The translations under genes were made by a program, and so were the position numbers. A DNA stretch of 62,597 nt, filler included, from Globobulimina sp. (taxonomy: Eukaryota), in NCBI GenBank assembly GCA_003354225.1. It is 22 parts of 22 records of this genome, joined end to end, with 100 filler letters (N's around TTAATTAATTAA, not from the genome) between each part and the next. Parts side by side here need not be neighbours in the genome. Positions count along the whole stretch, not along the records: positions 14,259 to 17,009 come from PIVH01005066.1; 21 more parts are not named here. One strand, 5' to 3'. Each line of letters begins with the position of its first letter. Within the stretch, counting starts at the first letter, position 1. The notes under the pieces are model-generated. The model made no database searches. It had not been told where the DNA came from and was given only the letters and a program-made list of their open reading frames with translations. Shown here in pieces: positions 11,408 through 48,357 of this stretch.

Positions 11408-13566
11408 TTATATATCTTATTTCCTTTATCGAAATTGTGCATATGTTTACAGGCTTTAATCGCCAGCAAATGAGACACATCATTGATAAGCTCCTCATAT
11501 TCATCATACACTGTCAGCACCTCTGGATAATATTTATTGTCACAGAAACTGCTCATCATACAATTAATAGTTACAACAGTTTTTTCTTCCTCTTTGATAT
11601 CATCGAATAACGTTTTTGACTCTTGAATGTAACCAAAAGTACCATAGAAATCAATCAATGTATTTTTATACTCAATGCTTTGCTTTTTAGCAGTTTCGAC
11701 CTGTTTTAAATGAATTTCTTTTCCTTTTGCAAAATCTCTGAGCACAGAGTACACATTCAACGCATAAATATGCGATATATCATCTTGTAATTCCTGATAT
11801 TCATCATATATACAAACCGCATCAGAATGACAATTATTTAGAATCAATGCTTGCATCAAACAATTAATACTCACTGCATTTTTATTAGTAATCTCATTGA
11901 ATATATAATTTGCAGTTTGAATGTCATTAAAATGACCATAGAAATTAATCATACAATTTTCAACTTCAACACTGCGCTCAATGTCTCTCAGATTGCTGTC
12001 TGCGATGATCTGTTGACCCATTGCTTTGTCGTCTGTATTTATGCAGGCTTTCAAAGCAAACACATTTGAGATATTATCGATTAACAACAAATTATCTCCA
12101 TATATTTCTAAAGCATTTGCATATAATTCATTGAGAATATATGCCTGCATCATACTGTTTATTGTCGATGTGTTATTCCTCTTATTCTCATTTATTGAGT
12201 TATACACATTTCGAGCGGCTGCTATATCACTAATACTCCCATAAAAACTGATGATGCCATTTAATAACTCAATGCTATGACTATTACTACGCAATGCCAC
12301 ATGCTGTGTAATTATATTGTGACACTGCGCAATATCCCCAATATTATGACACGCTTTGATTGAAAATAAATATGTGGTGTCATCAAACACATATTTATTT
12401 TCAAAACGTGTATAGATGGACAAGGCCTCATTATTACGACTATTATTGACCAGTCCTTGCAACATGCAATTAATAACCACAATATTTTTGTTTTCTATAT
12501 CATTGAATATGTGCAATGCTCTGTCAATATCACCAAAATGGGCATAAAATTGAATTAAAATATTTCTTACTTCAACACTATGATTATTGCGGTTATTAAA
12601 TAACTCGTGTTGCTGTATTATAATATCTCCGCTTGATTTATCATGCAAATGGATGCACGCTTTCAGAGCGAGTAAATGTGTGATATCGTTATGAAATGAA
12701 CATTGTTTATACAAAATTAATGCTTGTTCGTTTGCATGATTATGAATGAACCATTTCATTAAACTGCCGATACATTGCACATTTACCTTATTTTTGGCAA
12801 TGGAATTAAATATCATTTGCGCAGTGTCAATTTCACCAAAATAGCCATAAAAGTCAATCAAATTTGCAAATAATTCAATGCTGTGATCTTTATTTTTATT
12901 CATGGAGATAATGCTGGAATGAATCTCTTTTCCTTTGGCAAAGCTGTGCAGATTTTTGCAGGCTTTCAGCGCCAATAAATGTAATATGTCATCATGGAAT
13001 CTATCATATTTTGCATACATTTGTAAAGCTAATTCATTCGAATTGTTCTGAATCAAACATTTTATCATCGTGCTGACACAGATTTTATCTTTGAAACTTT
13101 CATCAATGGAATCAAATATTTGCAATGCATGGTCATGCTCATTTGCATGAGAATAGGCATTGATTAATGCGGTTTTAGTGATGATATCATTAATGTTGAC
13201 ACTGTTTTCAATGTCTTTTAATATTGGAATGGATGAGTTAGCTTTGTCAATATGCATTGATTTGATGCAGCATTCGATTATTAATGGGAATGAAATGCCG
13301 TTTATAGTTTTGATGTCATTCCAAATGGAAAATATTTGATGTTGATGTTGGAACTGTAGACATATTTTGAGGAAGGAATTTACTGCAAAATCATTCTTCT
13401 CTTCGTCAATTTTATTGTAGATTTCGATTGCTTTGGTAACAATCTTTTGGTTATGTTGAATTGCATCGAAATAGAAACTTTGTTTCCTGCGATGTAAACT
13501 TTTTAATATCTCTGTAGCTCGGTAGTTATTGATCCGTTTGCGTGATTTTGCTTTTTTTATTTTCAT
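11408..13566 (-). CDS. PPR protein with PLS-type triplet array; 3' truncated by contig end
   Basis: About 6 cycles of S (SIEL.NxLIDFYG.FG.I..A..IFN.I), P (NVV.INCM...L..N..N.EAL..Y) and L (DDI.HLLALKAC.......GKEIH) motifs. Confidence 0.9.
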
Positions 13567-13831: not shown

Positions 13832-14158
13832 TTACAATTTCGATCTCGGTAAGTTGCTGTACAATTTTGTTTGATTTAATTTATACACTTTAATGGCATT
13901 GGAATGCACCATTTTATCGATATCATCCTCTGAATAACTCAACTCTTTTAATATTTGAATATATAAATCCCAATACATATCATAATGGCCATGGGGTTTA
14001 TCCACAGGGAAATCAGAAGCAAACATACACCGATCAACGCCAAACATCTCAACAATTCTTTTTGTAATAAATTTCATTGATTGTTTGTCAAATTTCTGAT
14101 CAAAAATGCCCCATCCACTCAATTTGATAAATACATTTTCATTCTGCGCTATTAATCT
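13832..14158 (-). CDS. Amidohydrolase_2 family protein (fuconolactonase-like), C-terminal part
   Basis: NVFIKLSGWG...FGVDRCMFASDFPVDK...NAIKVYKL, typical TIM-barrel amidohydrolase C-terminus. Confidence 0.8.
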   Translation of the reverse strand, partial: RLIAQNENVFIKLSGWGIFDQKFDKQSMKFITKRIVEMFGVDRCMFASDFPVDKPHGHYDMYWDLYIQILKELSYSEDDIDKMVHSNAIKVYKLNQTKLYSNLPRSKL

Positions 14159-14258
14159 NNNNNNNNNNNNNNNNNNNNNNNNNNNNNNNNNNNNNNNNNN
14201 NNTTAATTAATTAANNNNNNNNNNNNNNNNNNNNNNNNNNNNNNNNNNNNNNNNNNNN

Positions 14259-14625
14259 GGCTACAAACAATATTTCCTCGATCTACATGTGGTAAGAGAT
14301 TTATTGCTTCTTCAATGGGGCCTCCCATAGCCGTATATTCGAGCCGCTTATCCCAACCAAAATTACCTACTGTGGAAAATCCAGAAGTTACCACAAGAGT
14401 AGGCAATGGTGGTGACTTCCCTAGTAGTATCTCGCCCCAACTATTACAGGTAAGATGGGCTTGCTGCCAAAGTTCGATGGCCATTTTTGTACATTTGATA
14501 GCATCTTGCTCAGTACCTGCACTGGTTGGTGCTCCCATATAGCCTATGATAGTGTCTCTCACAAATCGGTCTACGGTTGCACCATGAGCAAATGCAATTT
14601 CCATCAAAGTAGAAAGGTAACTGTT
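14259..14625 (-). other. Bacterial-type class III adenylate/guanylate cyclase fragment
   Basis: NSYLSTLMEIAFAHGATVDRFVRDTIIGYMGAP...DAIKCTKMAI...VTSGFSTVGNFGWDKRLEYTAMG matches the HGGTIDKFIGDAIM..FGAP / VGNFGS..R.DYT..G pattern. Visibly higher GC than the PPR part. Confidence 0.75.
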
Positions 14626-16785
14626 TATAAGTGCTGTCATCATACAATTAATAACAACAACATTCATTTTTCCGTCATCGGACATAGAATTAAATACTTT
14701 TAGCGCCAGATCCATATGTTTTAATTTGGAGTAAAAGTCAATCAATGCAGTTTTAATAAACACACTTTGCTCATCATTTAAAGCAATAATTCCATCATCG
14801 ATTTCTTTGCCTTTTTCAAAGTTTGAAAGATTTGAACAGGCTCTGATTGCTAATAAATGAGACACTGAATTTATTTTATTTGTTAATTTATATTCATCAT
14901 ATAATGAAAGTGCCATTTCATTCTTATTGTTATTTATCATAGCTTTCATCACACAATTTACAGAAATTATGTCTGCTTCATTGGTTTCCTTCATTTCAAA
15001 AAACATACTTTCAACTTCCAATATGTCAGCAAAATGTCCATAGAAATCAATTAAAGTATTTTTTAGTTGGACTGATTGATATTTATTCTTTTTATTGATA
15101 TTCTCAATGATATCATATCCGTTATCCAATTTATTCCCAGCAATACAAGCTTTTATCGCTTCAATATGTGATATATTATCAGTCAGTGACTCATATTTCT
15201 CATAAATAAACAAAACATTGTCATATTTGTGACATCTGTTATAAACATTCATCAGTGTATTAATTGTAACACAGGTCACGACATCATTTTTATTGAAATA
15301 TTTTTCCGCATTGCTAATATCTTCAAAATCTCCATAAAAATCAATCAAACTATTCCGCAGTTCAATGCTTAAATCATTTCTTTCTTCAAAGTGCTGACTG
15401 CTTATTATTTGTTGTATTCTTTCTTTTTCTTTCAAATCATTGATATTCAAACATGATTTAATTAATAATGTATGACTGACATCATCTCGTTTAGCATTCC
15501 ATGCATTATTTTCATAGAATACAACTGCTTGCTCAAATTGTTGGTTATTTATCAGAGCAGTCATCATCGAATTTATGGTCACGACATCTTTTTTTTCGTT
15601 TACAACGGAATTGAATATCTTTGTGGCTGTTAGAATATCGCCAGAATTGCCATAAAAATCAATCAATATATTTTTTAATCGAATGGAAGCATTGTTATTC
15701 AGCATATTATGTCTATCAATTACCTCTTGTCCATAATCAAAATCCTTCAAATTGATGCAAGCTTTGATGCATAAACAATGTGTCAATTCATCGTAAAATG
15801 AATATGAAAAATATTTCTTATAAATTGACAAAGCTTCTGCATTCAACTTATTATTGATTAGGACATTGATGATGGTATTAATACTGACAATGCTTCCTTT
15901 ATTATCGGCAATTTCATTGAACATATTCATAGCTGTGACAATTTGCGATTTACCACCACATTTCCCATAAAAATCAATCAGCGCATTATGTAATTCGACA
16001 CTGTGAATCTGTTTATTTTGAGTGATTTTTGAATGAATAGCTTTTCCATTGTCAAAATCCATGCAGTTTGTACAAGCTTTTATCGTCATACAATGAGATA
16101 TCTCATCCTGTAATATTTCATATTGATTGTATAGATTAAAAGCATTCGTATTGTATCCATTATTAACGTAAACAGTGAGCATTGCATTCAATGAAACTGT
16201 ATTTTTATCATTGATACCATCAAATTCCTGTAATGCAGTGTTGATTTGTCCAAATTTCCCGTAAAAATCAATCAATGCAGTTTTGACAAATATTGTGTTT
16301 GTATTTTGTGTCTTGATTTTCGTATTCAAAATTTCTTTCCCTTTATCAAAATTAGCAATGTTAGCGGATGCCTTTAAGCCTAAAATATGTGTTTGGTCAT
16401 CGGTTAAATGGTGATAAGTATCATAGAGTTGCAGTGCTTTTTCATTCTGGTGATGTTTTATTAATATTTTCATCATAACACCTAAAACCACCGTATCTTT
16501 TTGATTATCGTTGATAGATTCAAATACGGCCAATGAGGATTGTAGGTATTTGTTGTTTATTCCGTATGCATTAATTAATGATGTTTTGATAAAAATATCA
16601 TTGTCATAATAATCTTTTATTAATGAGTGGATATATTTTATTTCTTTAATATTACCATTATAACCTCTTATTATCTGGGAAATATTTATTGAACATTGTT
16701 TTAATTCTGTTCTATTTAATTTATAGTCACATTGTTTCATTAATTTTATGGTTTTTAGCCATTCATTCACATTTCCAGTCTGCAA
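14259..16785 (-). CDS. PPR protein with PLS-type triplet array, running in frame into a class III nucleotidyl cyclase-like fragment (probable chimera); partial
   Basis: About 20 PPR motifs in strict S-P-L order, e.g. TIFVKTALIDFYGKFGQINTALQEFDGINDK / NTVSLNAMLTVYVNNGYNTNAFNLYNQY / DEISHCMTIKACTNCMDFDNGKAIHSKI. Abrupt switch after MMTALIN at ~14625. Confidence 0.88.
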
Positions 16786-17109
16786 ATTATTTCCTTTTGT
16801 TTCTTACAATAAATAATACACGTTTTTCATCAGTTATTCAACACAAATTGCATACTTGATAGACATTGTAGGGAATCATGAATTTTTTGCTTCATAAGGC
16901 TGATTGCATTATTATATTATTTATATTTGAACAAGCTGTTTTTTTCTCAAAAACTTGGTGACTTCACAAAACATAATGTGGCATATTCATATTACGTGGA
17001 TGTTATGCCNNNNNNNNNNNNNNNNNNNNNNNNNNNNNNNNNNNNNNNNNNNNTTAATTAATTAANNNNNNNNNNNNNNNNNNNNNNNNNNNNNNNNNNN
17101 NNNNNNNNN

Positions 17110-17647
17110 CCCTCCATGCAAAAATTACTTTGGTGGTTCCAATTTTTATAGGCACTGCCAACGGATCAAAATCTATTTCCGTTTTTGTATAATTATGTCA
17201 CTTACTGTATATGTTATTTGATAGATGGAAACCTGGAAACATTTCTTTTTCGAAACGTAAATATGTCATTGCTGTACCATTCGAGTCAACATCCTTCCAG
17301 CCATCAATTTTTTTAATATGAGATTGATCAGCAAACAATTGCGGAGTTGAAAATCCAGTACCAATTCGATTGCCTAATATATACTCACCATCAGATGTAA
17401 TCCATCCAAGCACAATATCACTATTTTGCATTCCAGCGCCATTGGCTGATATTCCAAAACCAACCCAACCGTCTGTTTCAACGGCCATACCGACTTCTAA
17501 TGTGCAATCATCTTCATTCGCATTCCAATATAATTCAAATTTGCCATCTGAACCAACCATGAAAGTGTGGTAATCAAATTCGTCCAACCAGTCTTGGTAG
17601 CTTCTTGCTACGCATATAATAAAAATGGATACAATGAGATGGACCAT
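17110..17647 (-). CDS. Secreted DOMON-domain protein (DBH/MOXD1-like N-terminus); 3' partial
   Basis: Signal peptide MVHLIVSIFIICVARS, FELYW, DGWVGFGIS...MQNSDIVLGW. Intron 17232-17173 gives ...MFPDFDPLAVPIKIGTTKVIFAW. Confidence 0.85.
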
Positions 17648-17737
17648 TGTGCTTTTGCGTATCCTTGCACCAGAGTACCGTGCAATATTGCAATAATAAA
17701 AACTCACACTTTTTATGTTTCATCCCTTTTTTTTGAA

Positions 17738-35602: not shown

Positions 35603-36724
35603 ATGTTACAACGTCTGTCGAGATACACACGTCGAGTCTCACATTGTTCCAGTAATTATCATCATTATCAAAACAATGTGAAATTTCTTCAATTTTCTCG
35701 TCGTTGCATAACCGGCGGTGAAGTCATAGCAATATTAATGAGCAGCAAAGTAATACTAACAACGAGTTTAACTGCCTTAGGGATCGGAGTTGGATATTGG
35801 TATTTATCGGATGATGAATATATTTATGACTATGATGGACCAATAAATTATGAAATATTACGCAACGAAATCCGTTCCTTTATGTACTCCTCGGAATTCG
35901 ACGATGGTTGCAGTGCGCCCTTGTTATTGCGTCTAGCCTTCAATCAATGCGCCACCTATTCAAAGTATGATGGTTTGGGCGGCATGAATGGCTCCACCAT
36001 ACGCTTTGAGCCGCAAATAAGTTATCCGCACAATGCGGGGTTGAGGAAAGCAATGCAAATCTTAGAAGCAGTCAAAGTGAAATATGGCGATAAGTTGTCT
36101 TATGCGGATTTGTGGACTTTGGCCTCCTACGTTGCCATAGAAGAGATGGGCGGGCCATATATTGATTTCGTACCGGGACGAAGCGATTATATGGGGATGG
36201 GGATTGGGAATAAGTATGGTGGCCTTGGCATTGATTATAGATTGGATTTGGTCCCCGAGAGGTTTCCAGAATGGGATGAAGGTGTCTCGCGTTTATTGGA
36301 TTGGTGGGACAGAATGGACCTCTCCGACAGAGAGGGCGTGGCTTTGATGGGCGCCCATTCCTGCGGGAGATTACATGCTGAGAACTCTGGCATTGATGCG
36401 TCGTGGAGCGATGCGCAAATATTAACCAATGAATATTACAAGAACTTTAAATATGTGCCATATGTTTATGAACGGAGAGGGAGTGAACATTATTTTGATC
36501 CGGCAAACCCGGAATTGGTTTTGTTGCCCATTGAAGGCTCATTCTTTTATAATGCACGGAGTATGCGATGGGGTGAATTTTATGCTTATGCGGATTTGCA
36601 TATTTGGCTGAATGATTTTGCCGCTACTTTTAAGAAAATAACTGAACAGGGCTGTGATTTGCAAGCAAATAAGGATCCAAGTGTCAAACCTCTCAAATTG
36701 TATAATCTTGCGGGAGGAGACTAA
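35603..36724 (+). CDS. Mitochondrial class I heme peroxidase (cytochrome c/ascorbate peroxidase family) lacking the distal His
   Basis: Presequence + TM. PLLLRLAFNQCATYSK...GGMNGSTIRF...NAGL...LSYADLWTLA..VAIEEMGGP...PGRSD, ALMGAHSCG, FAATFKK. Confidence 0.88.
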   Translation: MLQRLSRYTRRVSHCSSNYHHYQNNVKFLQFSRRCITGGEVIAILMSSKVILTTSLTALGIGVGYWYLSDDEYIYDYDGPINYEILRNEIRSFMYSSEFDDGCSAPLLLRLAFNQCATYSKYDGLGGMNGSTIRFEPQISYPHNAGLRKAMQILEAVKVKYGDKLSYADLWTLASYVAIEEMGGPYIDFVPGRSDYMGMGIGNKYGGLGIDYRLDLVPERFPEWDEGVSRLLDWWDRMDLSDREGVALMGAHSCGRLHAENSGIDASWSDAQILTNEYYKNFKYVPYVYERRGSEHYFDPANPELVLLPIEGSFFYNARSMRWGEFYAYADLHIWLNDFAATFKKITEQGCDLQANKDPSVKPLKLYNLAGGD

Positions 36725-43863: not shown

Positions 43864-45366
43864 ATGAAGCTCAAGACCATGGCTCTCAGAAACACAAAAT
43901 TAATCACCAGGAAATGCTCCACCTTCATCATAATCCACCGCAATTTCTGCGAGGCTTTATTTGAAGTCCAAGCAGAGTACAAATACGATACTTTCCGACA
44001 TGCCATAAGTTGCGCAGATGGTATCGATGTCATACAAAAGAAAATGGGCACCATAAAACACATAAACGCATCAAAAAATAAAACAGTCCATTCCTCAATT
44101 TACAGTGCAGCAATTAAACGCGCACAAGAATTGAATGAATACTCTGAGTGTTGGAGGTTGTACAATGAAGCCAAGCACGAAAGTTGCATTGACATTTATT
44201 TACTGACCCAAATGATTAATATAACATCGTCATTCGTGGAAACACAATTTCTGTTTGATTATGACCATAAAAACTCGAAAATGTACAACAAATCAAAAGC
44301 AGAAGTGGCCAAACATAAAATGCTGAGCAGAGTGCATCAGTTATACAATGAGATGAGATATGAATTTAAGTTGCAAGCCACGAATGCGACCTATTCGTCG
44401 TTAATTAATTCATGCTCAAAGTTCAAAAGTTTTATTGGCGCGCAAAGATATTGGAAGCTATATTGCGAGGACAAGCATTTAGAGCGACACATCGATGTTT
44501 ATTCCGCGATAATTTACAGCCACGTTAATAAAACAGATATGATCGGAGCTATGAAATTATTTAATGAGATGATAAATATTTATAATTTGCAACCAAATGG
44601 GAAGATTATAAGTAAATTATTGTCCGGATTTGCCCATCTTATTATGATGAGGAAAAAAAATATCTCAAAATTTATGGAAATTTCACAGTTGGTCTCCGAA
44701 GCGGAACAATTAATTAAAACGTACTTACAAAATATTCATGCCAATATTGAGGTATTTAATGCGATTTGCAATGTTTATGCGTGTGCTGGGGATGTTGTGT
44801 CTTGCTTTGATATTTTGCATTGTTTATTGGATAAAAAGTTGCCGGCAAATTATAATATTGTGGTTGCAGCACCGCTGCCATCGCCAAACATTTATACATT
44901 TAATACATGTTTGAAATCATTGATTTATTGCGAGGAATTGTATGAGAATGAAAATACGAAACATAATAATTTAAATGTGTGGAGATTGGTTGATTTCATA
45001 TTTTCAGCAATGAATGAATATGGCATTGAGAGAGATTGTGTGACATATTCGACATTGTTTCATTTGTGCGGCAATTCAATGGATGATGATATTAAACCAG
45101 ATTTGGATAAAGCAATCTCATTTTATTTACAATTGTCAAATTCACAAACTGTTATTTCAAAGAAATGTATGTATAGTTTGCTGATCACTGCATTACAATT
45201 TTATGATTATGAGGGAAACGCAGAACTGCAACCAACTGCAAAACAAAGTAAATATGAATTTATTGAATGGTGGTTATCGGAAGCGAAAGATTATAGAGTT
45301 CAATGTAGTTTATCTATTCATCAATTACTTGATATTAAAGCTAAAAAATTTCGAATACCAAAATAA
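43864..45366 (+). CDS. P-class PPR protein, probably mitochondrial
   Basis: Basic presequence. PPR motifs ATNATYSSLINSCSK, DVYSAIIYSH...AMKLFNEM, PNIYTFNTCLK, RDCVTYSTLFHLC. No PLS periodicity. Confidence 0.8.
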   Translation: MKLKTMALRNTKLITRKCSTFIIIHRNFCEALFEVQAEYKYDTFRHAISCADGIDVIQKKMGTIKHINASKNKTVHSSIYSAAIKRAQELNEYSECWRLYNEAKHESCIDIYLLTQMINITSSFVETQFLFDYDHKNSKMYNKSKAEVAKHKMLSRVHQLYNEMRYEFKLQATNATYSSLINSCSKFKSFIGAQRYWKLYCEDKHLERHIDVYSAIIYSHVNKTDMIGAMKLFNEMINIYNLQPNGKIISKLLSGFAHLIMMRKKNISKFMEISQLVSEAEQLIKTYLQNIHANIEVFNAICNVYACAGDVVSCFDILHCLLDKKLPANYNIVVAAPLPSPNIYTFNTCLKSLIYCEELYENENTKHNNLNVWRLVDFIFSAMNEYGIERDCVTYSTLFHLCGNSMDDDIKPDLDKAISFYLQLSNSQTVISKKCMYSLLITALQFYDYEGNAELQPTAKQSKYEFIEWWLSEAKDYRVQCSLSIHQLLDIKAKKFRIPK

Positions 45367-45877
45367 AACATATGTGCGCTCTTTTAAATATTAAGGAGAT
45401 GTATTTTTTTGTATATGCTAAGCTTATTTCATTCACTATGTAAGTCCGTTGAATTCCTTCAGTATTAAACCGAAGAGGTTTTCTAACCTTAGCAAGTTCC
45501 GAATTTATTNNNNNNNNNNNNNNNNNNNNNNNNNNNNNNNNNNNNNNNNNNNNTTAATTAATTAANNNNNNNNNNNNNNNNNNNNNNNNNNNNNNNNNNN
45601 NNNNNNNNNATGACATATAATAAAAGCCATTCCAACTCCATATCCATCCTACCTCTTTTAGTATTTGTTTCTGTTGACTATGCTATCGTTTGTGTTGACT
45701 GTGTTTGCTTGTTCGTTCCTTTTTGTTTACAAAAGGTCACAAAATCGTACCGTTTCTGTGGAAAGAGCCACATTGTACATTTTGTACCTTTTATCTGTCA
45801 AAGCAAATAAAAGGAAAAAACTTTAGGTTGAAAAATCGCTAGTGTCGATATTTTTTTCTTTTGCGTTTGGCGCGGAA

Positions 45878-48357
45878 ATGACTGAATCCAGATACAACCT
45901 TCGGAATCGTAACAAAGGAAAAAAACCCATTGAAGATGCAGAAACAAAGGATTCAGACTCCGATCAAGAATCTTCAGCAAGCGAATATGAAGATGAAAGT
46001 GATGATGTTTCAAGTTGCGATCCGCAACCAGGCAACATGAGTGTAGATGAAGAACAAGCATCTGACGATGATGACGACGATGATATAAATTACGAGTTTG
46101 CAGCAAATAAAGATGATCCCGTGTTGCCAAAATCCATTGTTTACTTAAAACCTGATGCAAATTTGTCATTCCGTTGTGATCCACGATTGTTTGATGTACT
46201 TAACGATAGGGTTAATGATAATAATTGTGATGATATTAATCGATATCTGCAAAAATATAATGATGAAAGAATAAATAAAGAATATTTCCATTCAAATAAA
46301 CATGGAGGAATCGAAAATATACAAAATATTCAATCCTTGTATTTACGGAAAAAAGCAATGAATTGCGTTATGAACAAAATTGAGAAAAACATTGAACACA
46401 TCATAGGAAGTGCAGAGCGGAATATATTTGATGACATTGTAAAATTTGCACAAAATACGTATTCGTTAAATAATAATAAGACATCAATGGAATATTTATG
46501 GGCTTTAAATGAATGCGTTATACCAACTGCAATGTTAATGTGTGGGCAAAATATATCTGATCTTGAACTGCATTTCGAACATTTACAAAACCAGTTCGAA
46601 ACAAGTGTTTCTCCCTTAATTGTTCGATTTAAACAAACGGATTTAAAAAAAGATGGAACATTTGGTGGCAAAATGTACAATGTTGAAAAGTTTATTATTG
46701 ATACAATTTTCCAGAAATTAACTGATTGGAAAGTAAGCAAATCAAATACAAATAATACAAATAAGAGTGATAATGTTGAATATTATGATATGAAACAAGT
46801 ATTAAAATTGCCACCAATCAATCGTGTTAAAAATGAAATTATTCGAACTTTTTTGTTGTGGTATTTTAGATTTGGTAGAAACGTGAATAAATATTGGAGA
46901 AAAAATAATTTTATTAAATCATGTTTTGATGAATTACCAAAAATAATTCTTATGATTGATGGCATTGAACAATGGTCACCGATTATATTATCATCATTAA
47001 TATATATATTACATGATATGACTGATAATTATAAAAATATAACTGCCAACTTTAAGGGTAATATACCATTTATATTGGTTTTGGGTGTATCGACAACTGA
47101 AGATTTAATGCAACAAATGATTGAAGCGGATGCATTGCGATTATTATCTGTAAATAGATATTACTTTGAGCCGTCACATAAATTATATTCAAAATTAGCA
47201 GAAGAAATATTAATTGAATCATCACCAATATTATTTGATGAATGTATATTGAATAAATTGCTTCATCATTGTGAATTAAATGATTTTTCTGTGAACAGAT
47301 TTAAAGATCAAATTAAATATTTATTTATGTCTTTTTTTATGAATACAAAAGCATCGCAATATGCTGCATATTTAATGTACTTAAAAGATAAAGATAAAGA
47401 TAAACAAAATAGATATGATGATGATGAAGAATTTGATTTGTGGTGGTTTTCTGGAGAAGAGGATTACATTTCGGATTTTGTTCCAAATACACAAAAGTTT
47501 AAACATTATATTACAGAAATATTCACAATATATACCAGATACGTTGATGCATTGCGTGTATTTAAAATGATTTGTGATCATTTAGATTTTAAATGGAGTC
47601 GAAGTGAAATTATTGCAAAATTGCAAGACAAACAATTATTATATAAATATTTATTGGCGCGAGTAGGCGCAGTCGATGATAATATTAAAATTCCTGAGGA
47701 GAAGAAAGAAAGAGAGCAGTTTCCACAAAGAATTGAAGATTTTAAGGATTGTCATGAAATTTATAATATTCTTGAACAAAAAACAAAGTCATTTGATCAA
47801 GAAATCGCAGCAAATGCAGCCAAACAATATAAGATTATTACAAGCGGATTGGGAGAGAAACCAGTTATTAATACAAATAATAATAATAATACAAAAACAA
47901 AACGTAAATTAAATGCAAAGCAAAAACGATTAGAATTAAAAAGACAATTAACAGCAAATACTAATAAAGTATTATATGGTGAAGGAAGAAAGAATTTATT
48001 TCAATTATTACGTTGTTTTATTGAAAAACATTTAAAACCAATGAAGGAACTACCGTTAAATGAGATATTTGTATATTCAAAAGAAAGCAAATTTTGTCGG
48101 GATATGTTCCCGCCGACAAACAGTGCATTTCGCAAAAGATATGAAAATTATGCACAATATTTAGCTGACAATAACAGCGACAATATTGAGCCAGAAGGAA
48201 TGTGCTGTCTTTATGATGTTTATCAAGAGATTGATGGTTTATATATTAATTTGCATGATGCATATATTGCATTTAAACAAAGATTTGCTGCTTACAATCA
48301 AATGCAAGATGAAGATGACGATCAAGATAAGAAAAGAAGGAAAAAGAAAAGGAATAA
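45878..48357 (+). CDS. ORC3: Origin recognition complex subunit 3; 3' partial
   Basis: IPTAMLMCGQNISD...F..L, IILMIDGIEQW...LSSLI, IPFILVLGVSTT, DFSV..F, LPLNEIF, winged-helix start YINLHDAYIAF. Confidence 0.85.

Follow-up and report, generated by a model that had tools for sequence, protein, structure and literature searches.

Proteins of the pentatricopeptide repeat (PPR) superfamily with the plant-type PLS and DYW organization of organellar editing factors are few outside plants, and whether they arose there by ancient inheritance or by gene transfer is debated. The locus described here raises the question of whether such a gene belongs to a foraminifer, a host without a plastid of its own, and, if so, whether it acts in editing of mitochondrial RNA. 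The stretch of DNA analysed (62,597 bases, filed under Globobulimina sp., assembly GCA_003354225.1; hereafter the window) is not a single locus. It consists of 22 size-sorted contigs of 2748–2752 bp, with guanine–cytosine (GC) contents from 0.27 to 0.39, joined by 21 linkers of the form N44 + TTAATTAATTAA + N44 (e.g. 14159–14258). Because the contigs were joined artificially, neighbouring genes in the window are unlinked and their adjacency is without biological meaning. The gene in question lies on the minus strand of the 2.75-kb contig at 14259–17009, where an earlier note, made from the sequence by itself, had marked positions 14626–16785 as a PLS-class PPR array of plant-like architecture in a non-plant protist.

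Anchored segmentation of the spliced protein resolved an unbroken S-P-L cycle over residues 83–740 (nucleotides 16596–14623, minus strand), comprising 20 PPR motifs (7 S, 7 P and 6 L) arranged as six S-P-L triplets followed by one S and a truncated P, the latter interrupted after 13 residues. The count of about 20 motifs in strict three-motif cycles given in the earlier note is thereby borne out. A second PLS-class gene on the neighbouring contig of the stretch (11410..13566, minus; 18 motifs by segmentation and plant profiles, Pfam PPR E 1.3e-22), which runs off the contig end, is a paralogue with 39% identity. In the two genes, S motifs measure 31–36, P motifs 31–34 and L motifs 35–39 amino acids, close to the lengths first proposed (about 31, 32 and 35), and triplets span 98–106 amino acids. 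Residue autocorrelation has its maxima at shifts of 98–106 and about 203, with a value of 0.143 versus a maximum of 0.126 in 200 shuffles (0.171 versus 0.120 for the paralogue). The near-invariant histidine that had been noticed in the L motif was seen at position 4 in 10 of the 12 L motifs of both genes. Pfam reported PPR_2 (E 3.6e-19, 69 bits) and PPR (E 3.5e-17, 61.8 bits) for the minus-strand open reading frame (ORF), both above the cut-offs. A tandem-repeat search of the gene at the DNA level found no long-period repeat, and the triplets are therefore old and diverged, not recently amplified.

The gene almost certainly encodes a plant-type PLS-class PPR protein, as had been claimed for this non-plant protist, because motif-class profiles, the best PDB sequence match and the best PDB fold match all agree on the PLS class in the plant sense. 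Scoring with motif-class hidden Markov models (HMMs), a check that the earlier note had proposed, was run with plant P, L and S profiles made from 38 named land-plant proteins among 120 listed relatives, the class assignment starting from anchor patterns and being improved by HMM tiling, which yielded 121 instances of P, 30 of L and 105 of S. The motifs did not all score as P-type: 36 of the 38 motifs of both window PLS genes scored best with the class predicted by the cycle (12/13 for S, 12/13 for P and 12/12 for L), and the exceptions were a P that is weak and the paralogue's first S. A phmmer search of the PDB with the window protein gave 25 distinct sequences at E<=0.001, led by 9kfx, a synthetic PPR-DYW editing factor (7.4e-50, 173.5 bits), and by 5iww, the designer PLS9-PPR (3.2e-26), whereas the best P-type designer reached only 3.6e-18, and the alignments to the synthetic PLS proteins kept S, P and L in register across more than two triplets. 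As a control, the P-type PPR ORF at 43864–45366 was searched against the PDB at E<=0.01, and all nine of its matches were P-type designer or other non-PLS repeat proteins. In the AlphaFold model built on a 16-sequence alignment (predicted local distance difference test score 89.0, 39 helices), the array winds into a superhelix whose 20 helical hairpins follow one another in S-P-L triplets; with this model Foldseek returned 9kfx_A as the top match (E 4.2e-15), and 5iww_D matched with a TMt of 0.81 and a root-mean-square deviation of 3.7.

With land-plant PLS editing factors of the E and DYW subclasses (e.g. At4g14850-like; synthetic 9kfx, 5iww), the window protein shares the same P/L/S triplets of about 101 amino acids, the S core N-A-L-I-D-x-Y-G-K-x-G, the L core I/L-K-A-C and ordinary fifth and last code residues. 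It differs from them in having a P motif of 31–34 instead of 35 amino acids, with I/L for the plant W at P position 4, in an S motif with F for the plant M (D-F-Y-G versus D-M-Y-x-K), in an L motif with S-H for T-F, and in the presence of an intron in its gene.

The relatives of the protein point to the host. A homology search found 216 proteins at E<=1e-5, and an exhaustive library search found 869 at E<=1e-30. The top of the 216 is Nonionella stella P0001 (EP01083_Nonionella_stella_P213419), with 54% identity over 86% of the query, while Bolivina argentea P0122 (EP01084_Bolivina_argentea_P014681), a 325-aa fragment, is 61% identical. Both are colinear with the window gene from residue 1 and are 51% identical to each other, and hence three organisms have diverged orthologues. 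Named land-plant PLS proteins reach just 20–24% identity to the window protein. The source labels of 20 homologues comprise nine N. stella, three B. argentea, one fern (Pteridium) and seven unnamed entries; P0121, a cluster member, is a tenth N. stella homologue. A search for shorter proteins yielded neither a match identical to the window nor a named foraminiferal genome protein. Under a crude signature rule (foraminifer-style: D-F-Y, S-H and I/L-N-x-M-M; plant-style: W-N, D-M-Y and T-F), the best 150 of the 869 library matches divide into 63 foraminifer-style and 87 plant-style proteins, and ranks 1–13 of the library search are all foraminifer-style. With transcripts of B. argentea and N. 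stella as the closest relatives, and with DYW-bearing members in the family (see below), the PLS family that had been claimed for a foraminiferan-like host was found, and judged from these homologues the window gene is very probably a nuclear gene of a foraminifer. A separate observation concerns P0123, a 364-aa foraminifer-style PLS fragment, 36% identical to the query, whose 1093-bp contig belongs at NCBI to an Actinomycetota metagenome-assembled genome (MAG), with the fragment annotated as a hypothetical protein; the contig is probably eukaryotic and was misbinned in a bacterial MAG.

The orthologues also fix the beginning of the gene. Exon 1 (16856..16895, minus) opens with the start codon at 16895–16893 and comprises 13 codons and one base, and its translation aligns from residue 1 with the N-termini of P0001 and P0122. 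It is followed by a spliceosomal-type GT..AG intron of 53 nt (16803..16855, minus; plus-strand ends CT..AC), whose removal (16855–16803) preserves the reading frame. Exon 2 starts with an N-terminal non-PPR region (residues 14–82; 16597..16802, minus), conserved with P0001 and P0122 and assigned to no family by Pfam, and continues into the array. Among public contigs, one of run X2 (RNA or DNA unrecorded) joins 16802 to 16856 and lacks exactly the 53 intron letters, which is a hint, not proof, that the PPR gene is expressed. The limits given earlier (14626–16785) are thus correct insofar as the motifs lie there, but the strand is minus, the start is at 16895, position 16785 is merely a mechanical ORF start, and the array end near 14626 is no protein end. 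A low-depth X2 contig carries an extra T at 16882, in the A/T run of exon 1, that would break the frame after the start codon; the extra T is likely a homopolymer error or a variant of another strain, and the window version agrees with the orthologues.

What the protein would look like beyond the contig end can be read from P0001, which is complete (1099 aa) and has further triplets, P2-L2-S2 and E1/E2 beyond the end of the window contig. By analogy with this orthologue, the complete window protein would continue for about three further triplets and close with a P2-L2-S2 triplet and E1/E2 motifs, without DYW, which would make it an E-subclass protein. The profiles used for these C-terminal elements (P2L2S2, E1E2 and DYW) were made from plant proteins only. 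The E1E2 profile matched P0001 at 1029–1078 (8.7e-6), P0046 (2.6e-12) and, at their C-termini, P0009 and P0016; Pfam E_motif was not reported for P0001 at E<=0.01. The P2L2S2 profile matched P0001 at 919–1009 (1.7e-6), although its best score in that protein lies at 212–300. The top-scoring triplet lies near the C-terminus in 8 of the 11 matched foraminifer-labelled proteins (e.g. P0009, 906–1000, 6.7e-19), and P0001, P0010 and P0054 are the exceptions, with their best score elsewhere.

DYW domains are present in other members of the family. The plant DYW profile found N. stella P0046 (2.3e-25) and P0054 (1e-11), and Pfam DYW_deaminase was reported in four of six proteins scanned (P0046, 72.6 bits; P0054, 34.1; metagenomic P0018, 107.2; P0031, 94.1; cut-off 24), and not for P0001 or P0002. 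In the best 150 of the 869 library matches, DYW occurs in 4 of the 63 foraminifer-style and 9 of the 87 plant-style relatives. As in land-plant PLS proteins, the foraminiferal relatives thus carry P2-L2-S2 as the terminal triplet, followed by E1/E2, and some also possess a DYW domain with intact HSE and CxDCH, whereas the domain ends in DRY, DYY, EYY, DFY or DSY and not in DYW. Beside this, N. stella P0009 and P0054, which may be recent paralogues or alternative forms, have identical first 40 residues; P0009 (1059 aa) terminates in E motifs, and P0054 (1140 aa) in a DYW-like domain that is divergent (34.1 bits; with HAEK and CIDCH).

The array also permits a prediction of the RNA target. At the fifth and last positions, the 13 complete P and S motifs carry TD, GD, TN, ND, NS, ND, ND, ND, NT, ND, ND, NN and TN. 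In the excerpted code assignments of PMC6468296, TN specifies A, TD specifies G, NS specifies C and ND specifies U, NN and NT lean to U, and the code of L motifs is stated to be unknown for plants too. Every P and S motif would read one base of single-stranded RNA via its fifth and last residues, and the predicted target, 5′ to 3′, is approximately G n n A U n C U n U U n U U n U Y n A U, where n stands for L motifs or codes without a seen assignment. At these code positions the protein agrees with N. stella P0001 in 25 of 26 residues, versus 399 of 713 (56%) overall, and 12 of the 13 di-residue codes occur in the same order as in P0001, a number reached by none of 100,000 shuffles (shuffled mean 3.1). 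Conservation so far above background argues for a conserved RNA target, and codes conserved between three species provide a concrete predicted binding site. The earlier note had further proposed a lineage-specific variant of the recognition code, and this proposal was rejected. The P and S code positions carry ordinary plant combinations (TD, TN, NS, ND, NN and NT), so no new code is required, and the histidine at L position 4 is no code position.

Two alternatives concern the contig itself. According to the first, the contig did not originate in the foraminiferal nucleus but in another, foraminifer-associated eukaryote or in a contaminating plant. Weighing against a foraminiferal origin is that the host label derives from homologues in field-collected transcriptomes and not from a marker gene of the assembly; the N. 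stella and B. argentea data are EukProt transcriptomes, which are able to contain foreign transcripts, and the filing of P0123 under an Actinomycetota MAG demonstrates that mislabelling happens. Yet the three organisms have orthologues diverged at 51–61% and not one identical contaminant, and the window and foraminifer-labelled proteins share their signatures (I/L instead of W in the P motif, F instead of M in the S motif and SH instead of TF in the L motif), where named plants instead show W-N, D-M-Y and T-F. The GC content of the gene (0.29) also lies within the contig range of 0.27–0.39. A plant source, the contamination that the earlier note had named as fatal to its interpretation, was rejected on the land-plant identity of merely 20–24%, an AT-rich composition like that of the window, the spliceosomal intron and the orthologues in two foraminiferal transcriptomes. 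A foreign source of either kind is consequently considered very improbable. The other alternative arises where the contig leaves the PPR gene at 14622, short of the true C-terminus, and continues into a tail resembling the catalytic domain of a class III nucleotidyl cyclase (14259..14621, minus; 120 codons, in frame, outside the PPR gene and joined to it by a probable misjoin). An Atlas feature search of the tail returned Guanylate_cyc clusters (score 0.93, 27/30 matches), the two best matches sharing 170–173 of 256 features, and Pfam found nothing there at E<=1, the piece being a partial domain only. The junction might be genuine in the isolate, either as a rearranged pseudogene copy or as a true PPR-cyclase fusion; the tail stays open in frame for its 120 codons up to the contig end, and its GC content at third codon positions (GC3, 0.31) is near that of the PPR part (0.27), so that it looks like DNA of the same organism. 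This is nevertheless improbable. Records of the public runs X1 (0 mismatches), X6 and X7 all cease matching precisely at 14622, and X7 record 19 extends 156 letters unlike the window beyond it, the nearest 30 of which, reverse-complemented and translated by hand, read N-Q-Q-Y-N-E-A-L-L-L in frame, the rest of the interrupted P motif. In addition, the cyclase piece by our own reading lacks the N-terminal part of its domain, and a fall into the same frame has a one-in-three chance. No contig of four public runs spans 14262–14621, a gap that is itself not counted as evidence, whereas the loose ends at 14622 are. Overall GC differs between tail and array (0.44 versus 0.29), but given its low GC3 the tail is probably host DNA joined by misassembly, and the apparent end of the array near 14626 probably reflects two host loci misjoined inside the gene.

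The remaining alternative concerns function. We lean, by a small margin of belief, towards a role of the window protein in mitochondrial C-to-U editing, because the orthologue has E1/E2, DYW paralogues exist in the same species, and there is a record of such editing in Naegleria and paradinids. The protein would be imported into the mitochondrion (a localization that we assume), its E motifs would place a cytidine a few bases downstream of the target for deamination to uridine, and the deaminase would be supplied in trans by a DYW-bearing member of the family. Several observations weigh against this proposal. The N-terminus is not an obvious presequence, two of the first 25 residues being acidic in both orthologues; the N-termini of several family members are basic and poor in acidic residues, and that of the window gene is not clearly so. 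No DYW or E domain was found in six-frame ORFs of the 22 window contigs (0 matches at E<=10) and the orthologue P0001 is without DYW in Pfam, for which reason the window gene is not classed as DYW-type and catalysis in trans has to be assumed. Finally, the literature searched holds no report of C-to-U editing for foraminiferal mitochondria. The protein may instead bind a specific mitochondrial RNA without editing it, and stabilize, process or aid the translation of a transcript, e.g. in the fragmented-rRNA, split-gene setting of foraminiferal mitogenomes. Besides the unreported editing, this alternative draws on the lack of DYW in P0001 and in 59 of the 63 foraminifer-style relatives among the best 150 of 869, and on the fragmented rRNA genes, split nad genes and large intergenic regions described in the part of PMC10127745 consulted. 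The E1/E2 extension retained by the orthologue is, however, a signature of plant editing factors, the same species has DYW paralogues with intact zinc ligands, and C-to-U editing in Naegleria and paradinids was, in the excerpted literature, found after DYW-type PPR proteins had been noticed. We therefore regard RNA binding without editing as a tentative alternative and rather unlikely, and editing as the preferred role.

Plant-like editing architecture outside plants is likewise known from the DYW-type PPR proteins of Naegleria gruberi, Physarum polycephalum and paradinid Rhizaria, here compared by description. The Physarum arrays are described, in the text available, as mostly LS-type, while the window arrays are strictly PLS. 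For paradinids, the available part of PMC11946409 (2025) gives one and three PPR-DYW sequences in two strains, with C-to-U editing shown, and states that C-to-U editing had never before been reported in Rhizaria. As excerpted, the paradinids thus have few DYW proteins together with P-type PPRs, whereas the foraminifers have full PLS triplets and a large family (63 foraminifer-style proteins in the best 150 of 869, counted as cluster representatives). A survey (PMC13386178, 2026) counts 31 DYW domains for ‘Rhizaria’ from NCBI NR; its main text, so far as available, names no species, and its supplementary tables may name foraminifers. Foraminiferal mitogenomes are described with 14 protein genes, fragmented rRNAs and a conserved cox1 frameshift in miliolids, and no RNA data appear in the portion of that source consulted (PMC10127745). 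Full-text literature searches found no paper on foraminiferal PPR proteins, and a search with the DYW region of P0046 for named protist DYW relatives returned only the query out of 246 candidates.

Extended from the window gene to the group, the proposal would be that PLS-E and PLS-DYW proteins form a large family in Foraminifera, passed on by vertical inheritance and with a motif dialect of its own, which drives site-specific C-to-U editing in mitochondria, and that, given the nearly complete conservation of code residues between genera, single editing or binding sites are conserved across orders; we consider this broader statement evenly poised between true and false. A large family with the full PLS-E-DYW architecture adds Foraminifera, a major and ecologically important phylum that was unnamed for it in the literature searched, to the holders of such factors, and the novelty would be lower if the rhizarian species behind the 31 DYW domains, which the excerpt of PMC13386178 leaves unnamed, were foraminifers. 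If the editing prediction is true, foraminiferal mitochondrial transcripts would undergo C-to-U editing, a process not yet described in the phylum, and their mRNA would depart at defined positions from the mitochondrial gene sequences in print, COI barcodes among them. The prediction therefore touches the annotation of the recent foraminiferal mitogenomes and COI barcoding. Surveys of such genes call for caution, given a fragmented assembly in which a misjoin falls within the gene and a related fragment that was deposited as part of a bacterial MAG.

The other contigs of the window carry ordinary eukaryotic proteins, namely a leishmanolysin (Peptidase_M8; 30–1991, minus), ORC3 (45842–48357, plus), a RabGAP-TBC protein, a haem peroxidase (35603–36724, plus) and a DOMON protein (17198–17707, minus). 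The contig of the second PLS gene also carries, immediately upstream of that gene, the C-terminal piece of an Amidohydro_2 protein (13832–14122, minus; E 1.5e-12). PLS genes thus occur on 2 of the 22 contigs and a P-type gene on a third, and several PPR contigs among 22 suggest a large family, the sample being too small for an estimate of its size. The P-type gene, the third PPR ORF of the window (43864–45366, plus), encodes a protein of 500 aa that was classed by eye as P-type and not PLS, and upstream of it, in the same contig and frame, a C2H2 zinc finger-like stretch was recognized by eye.

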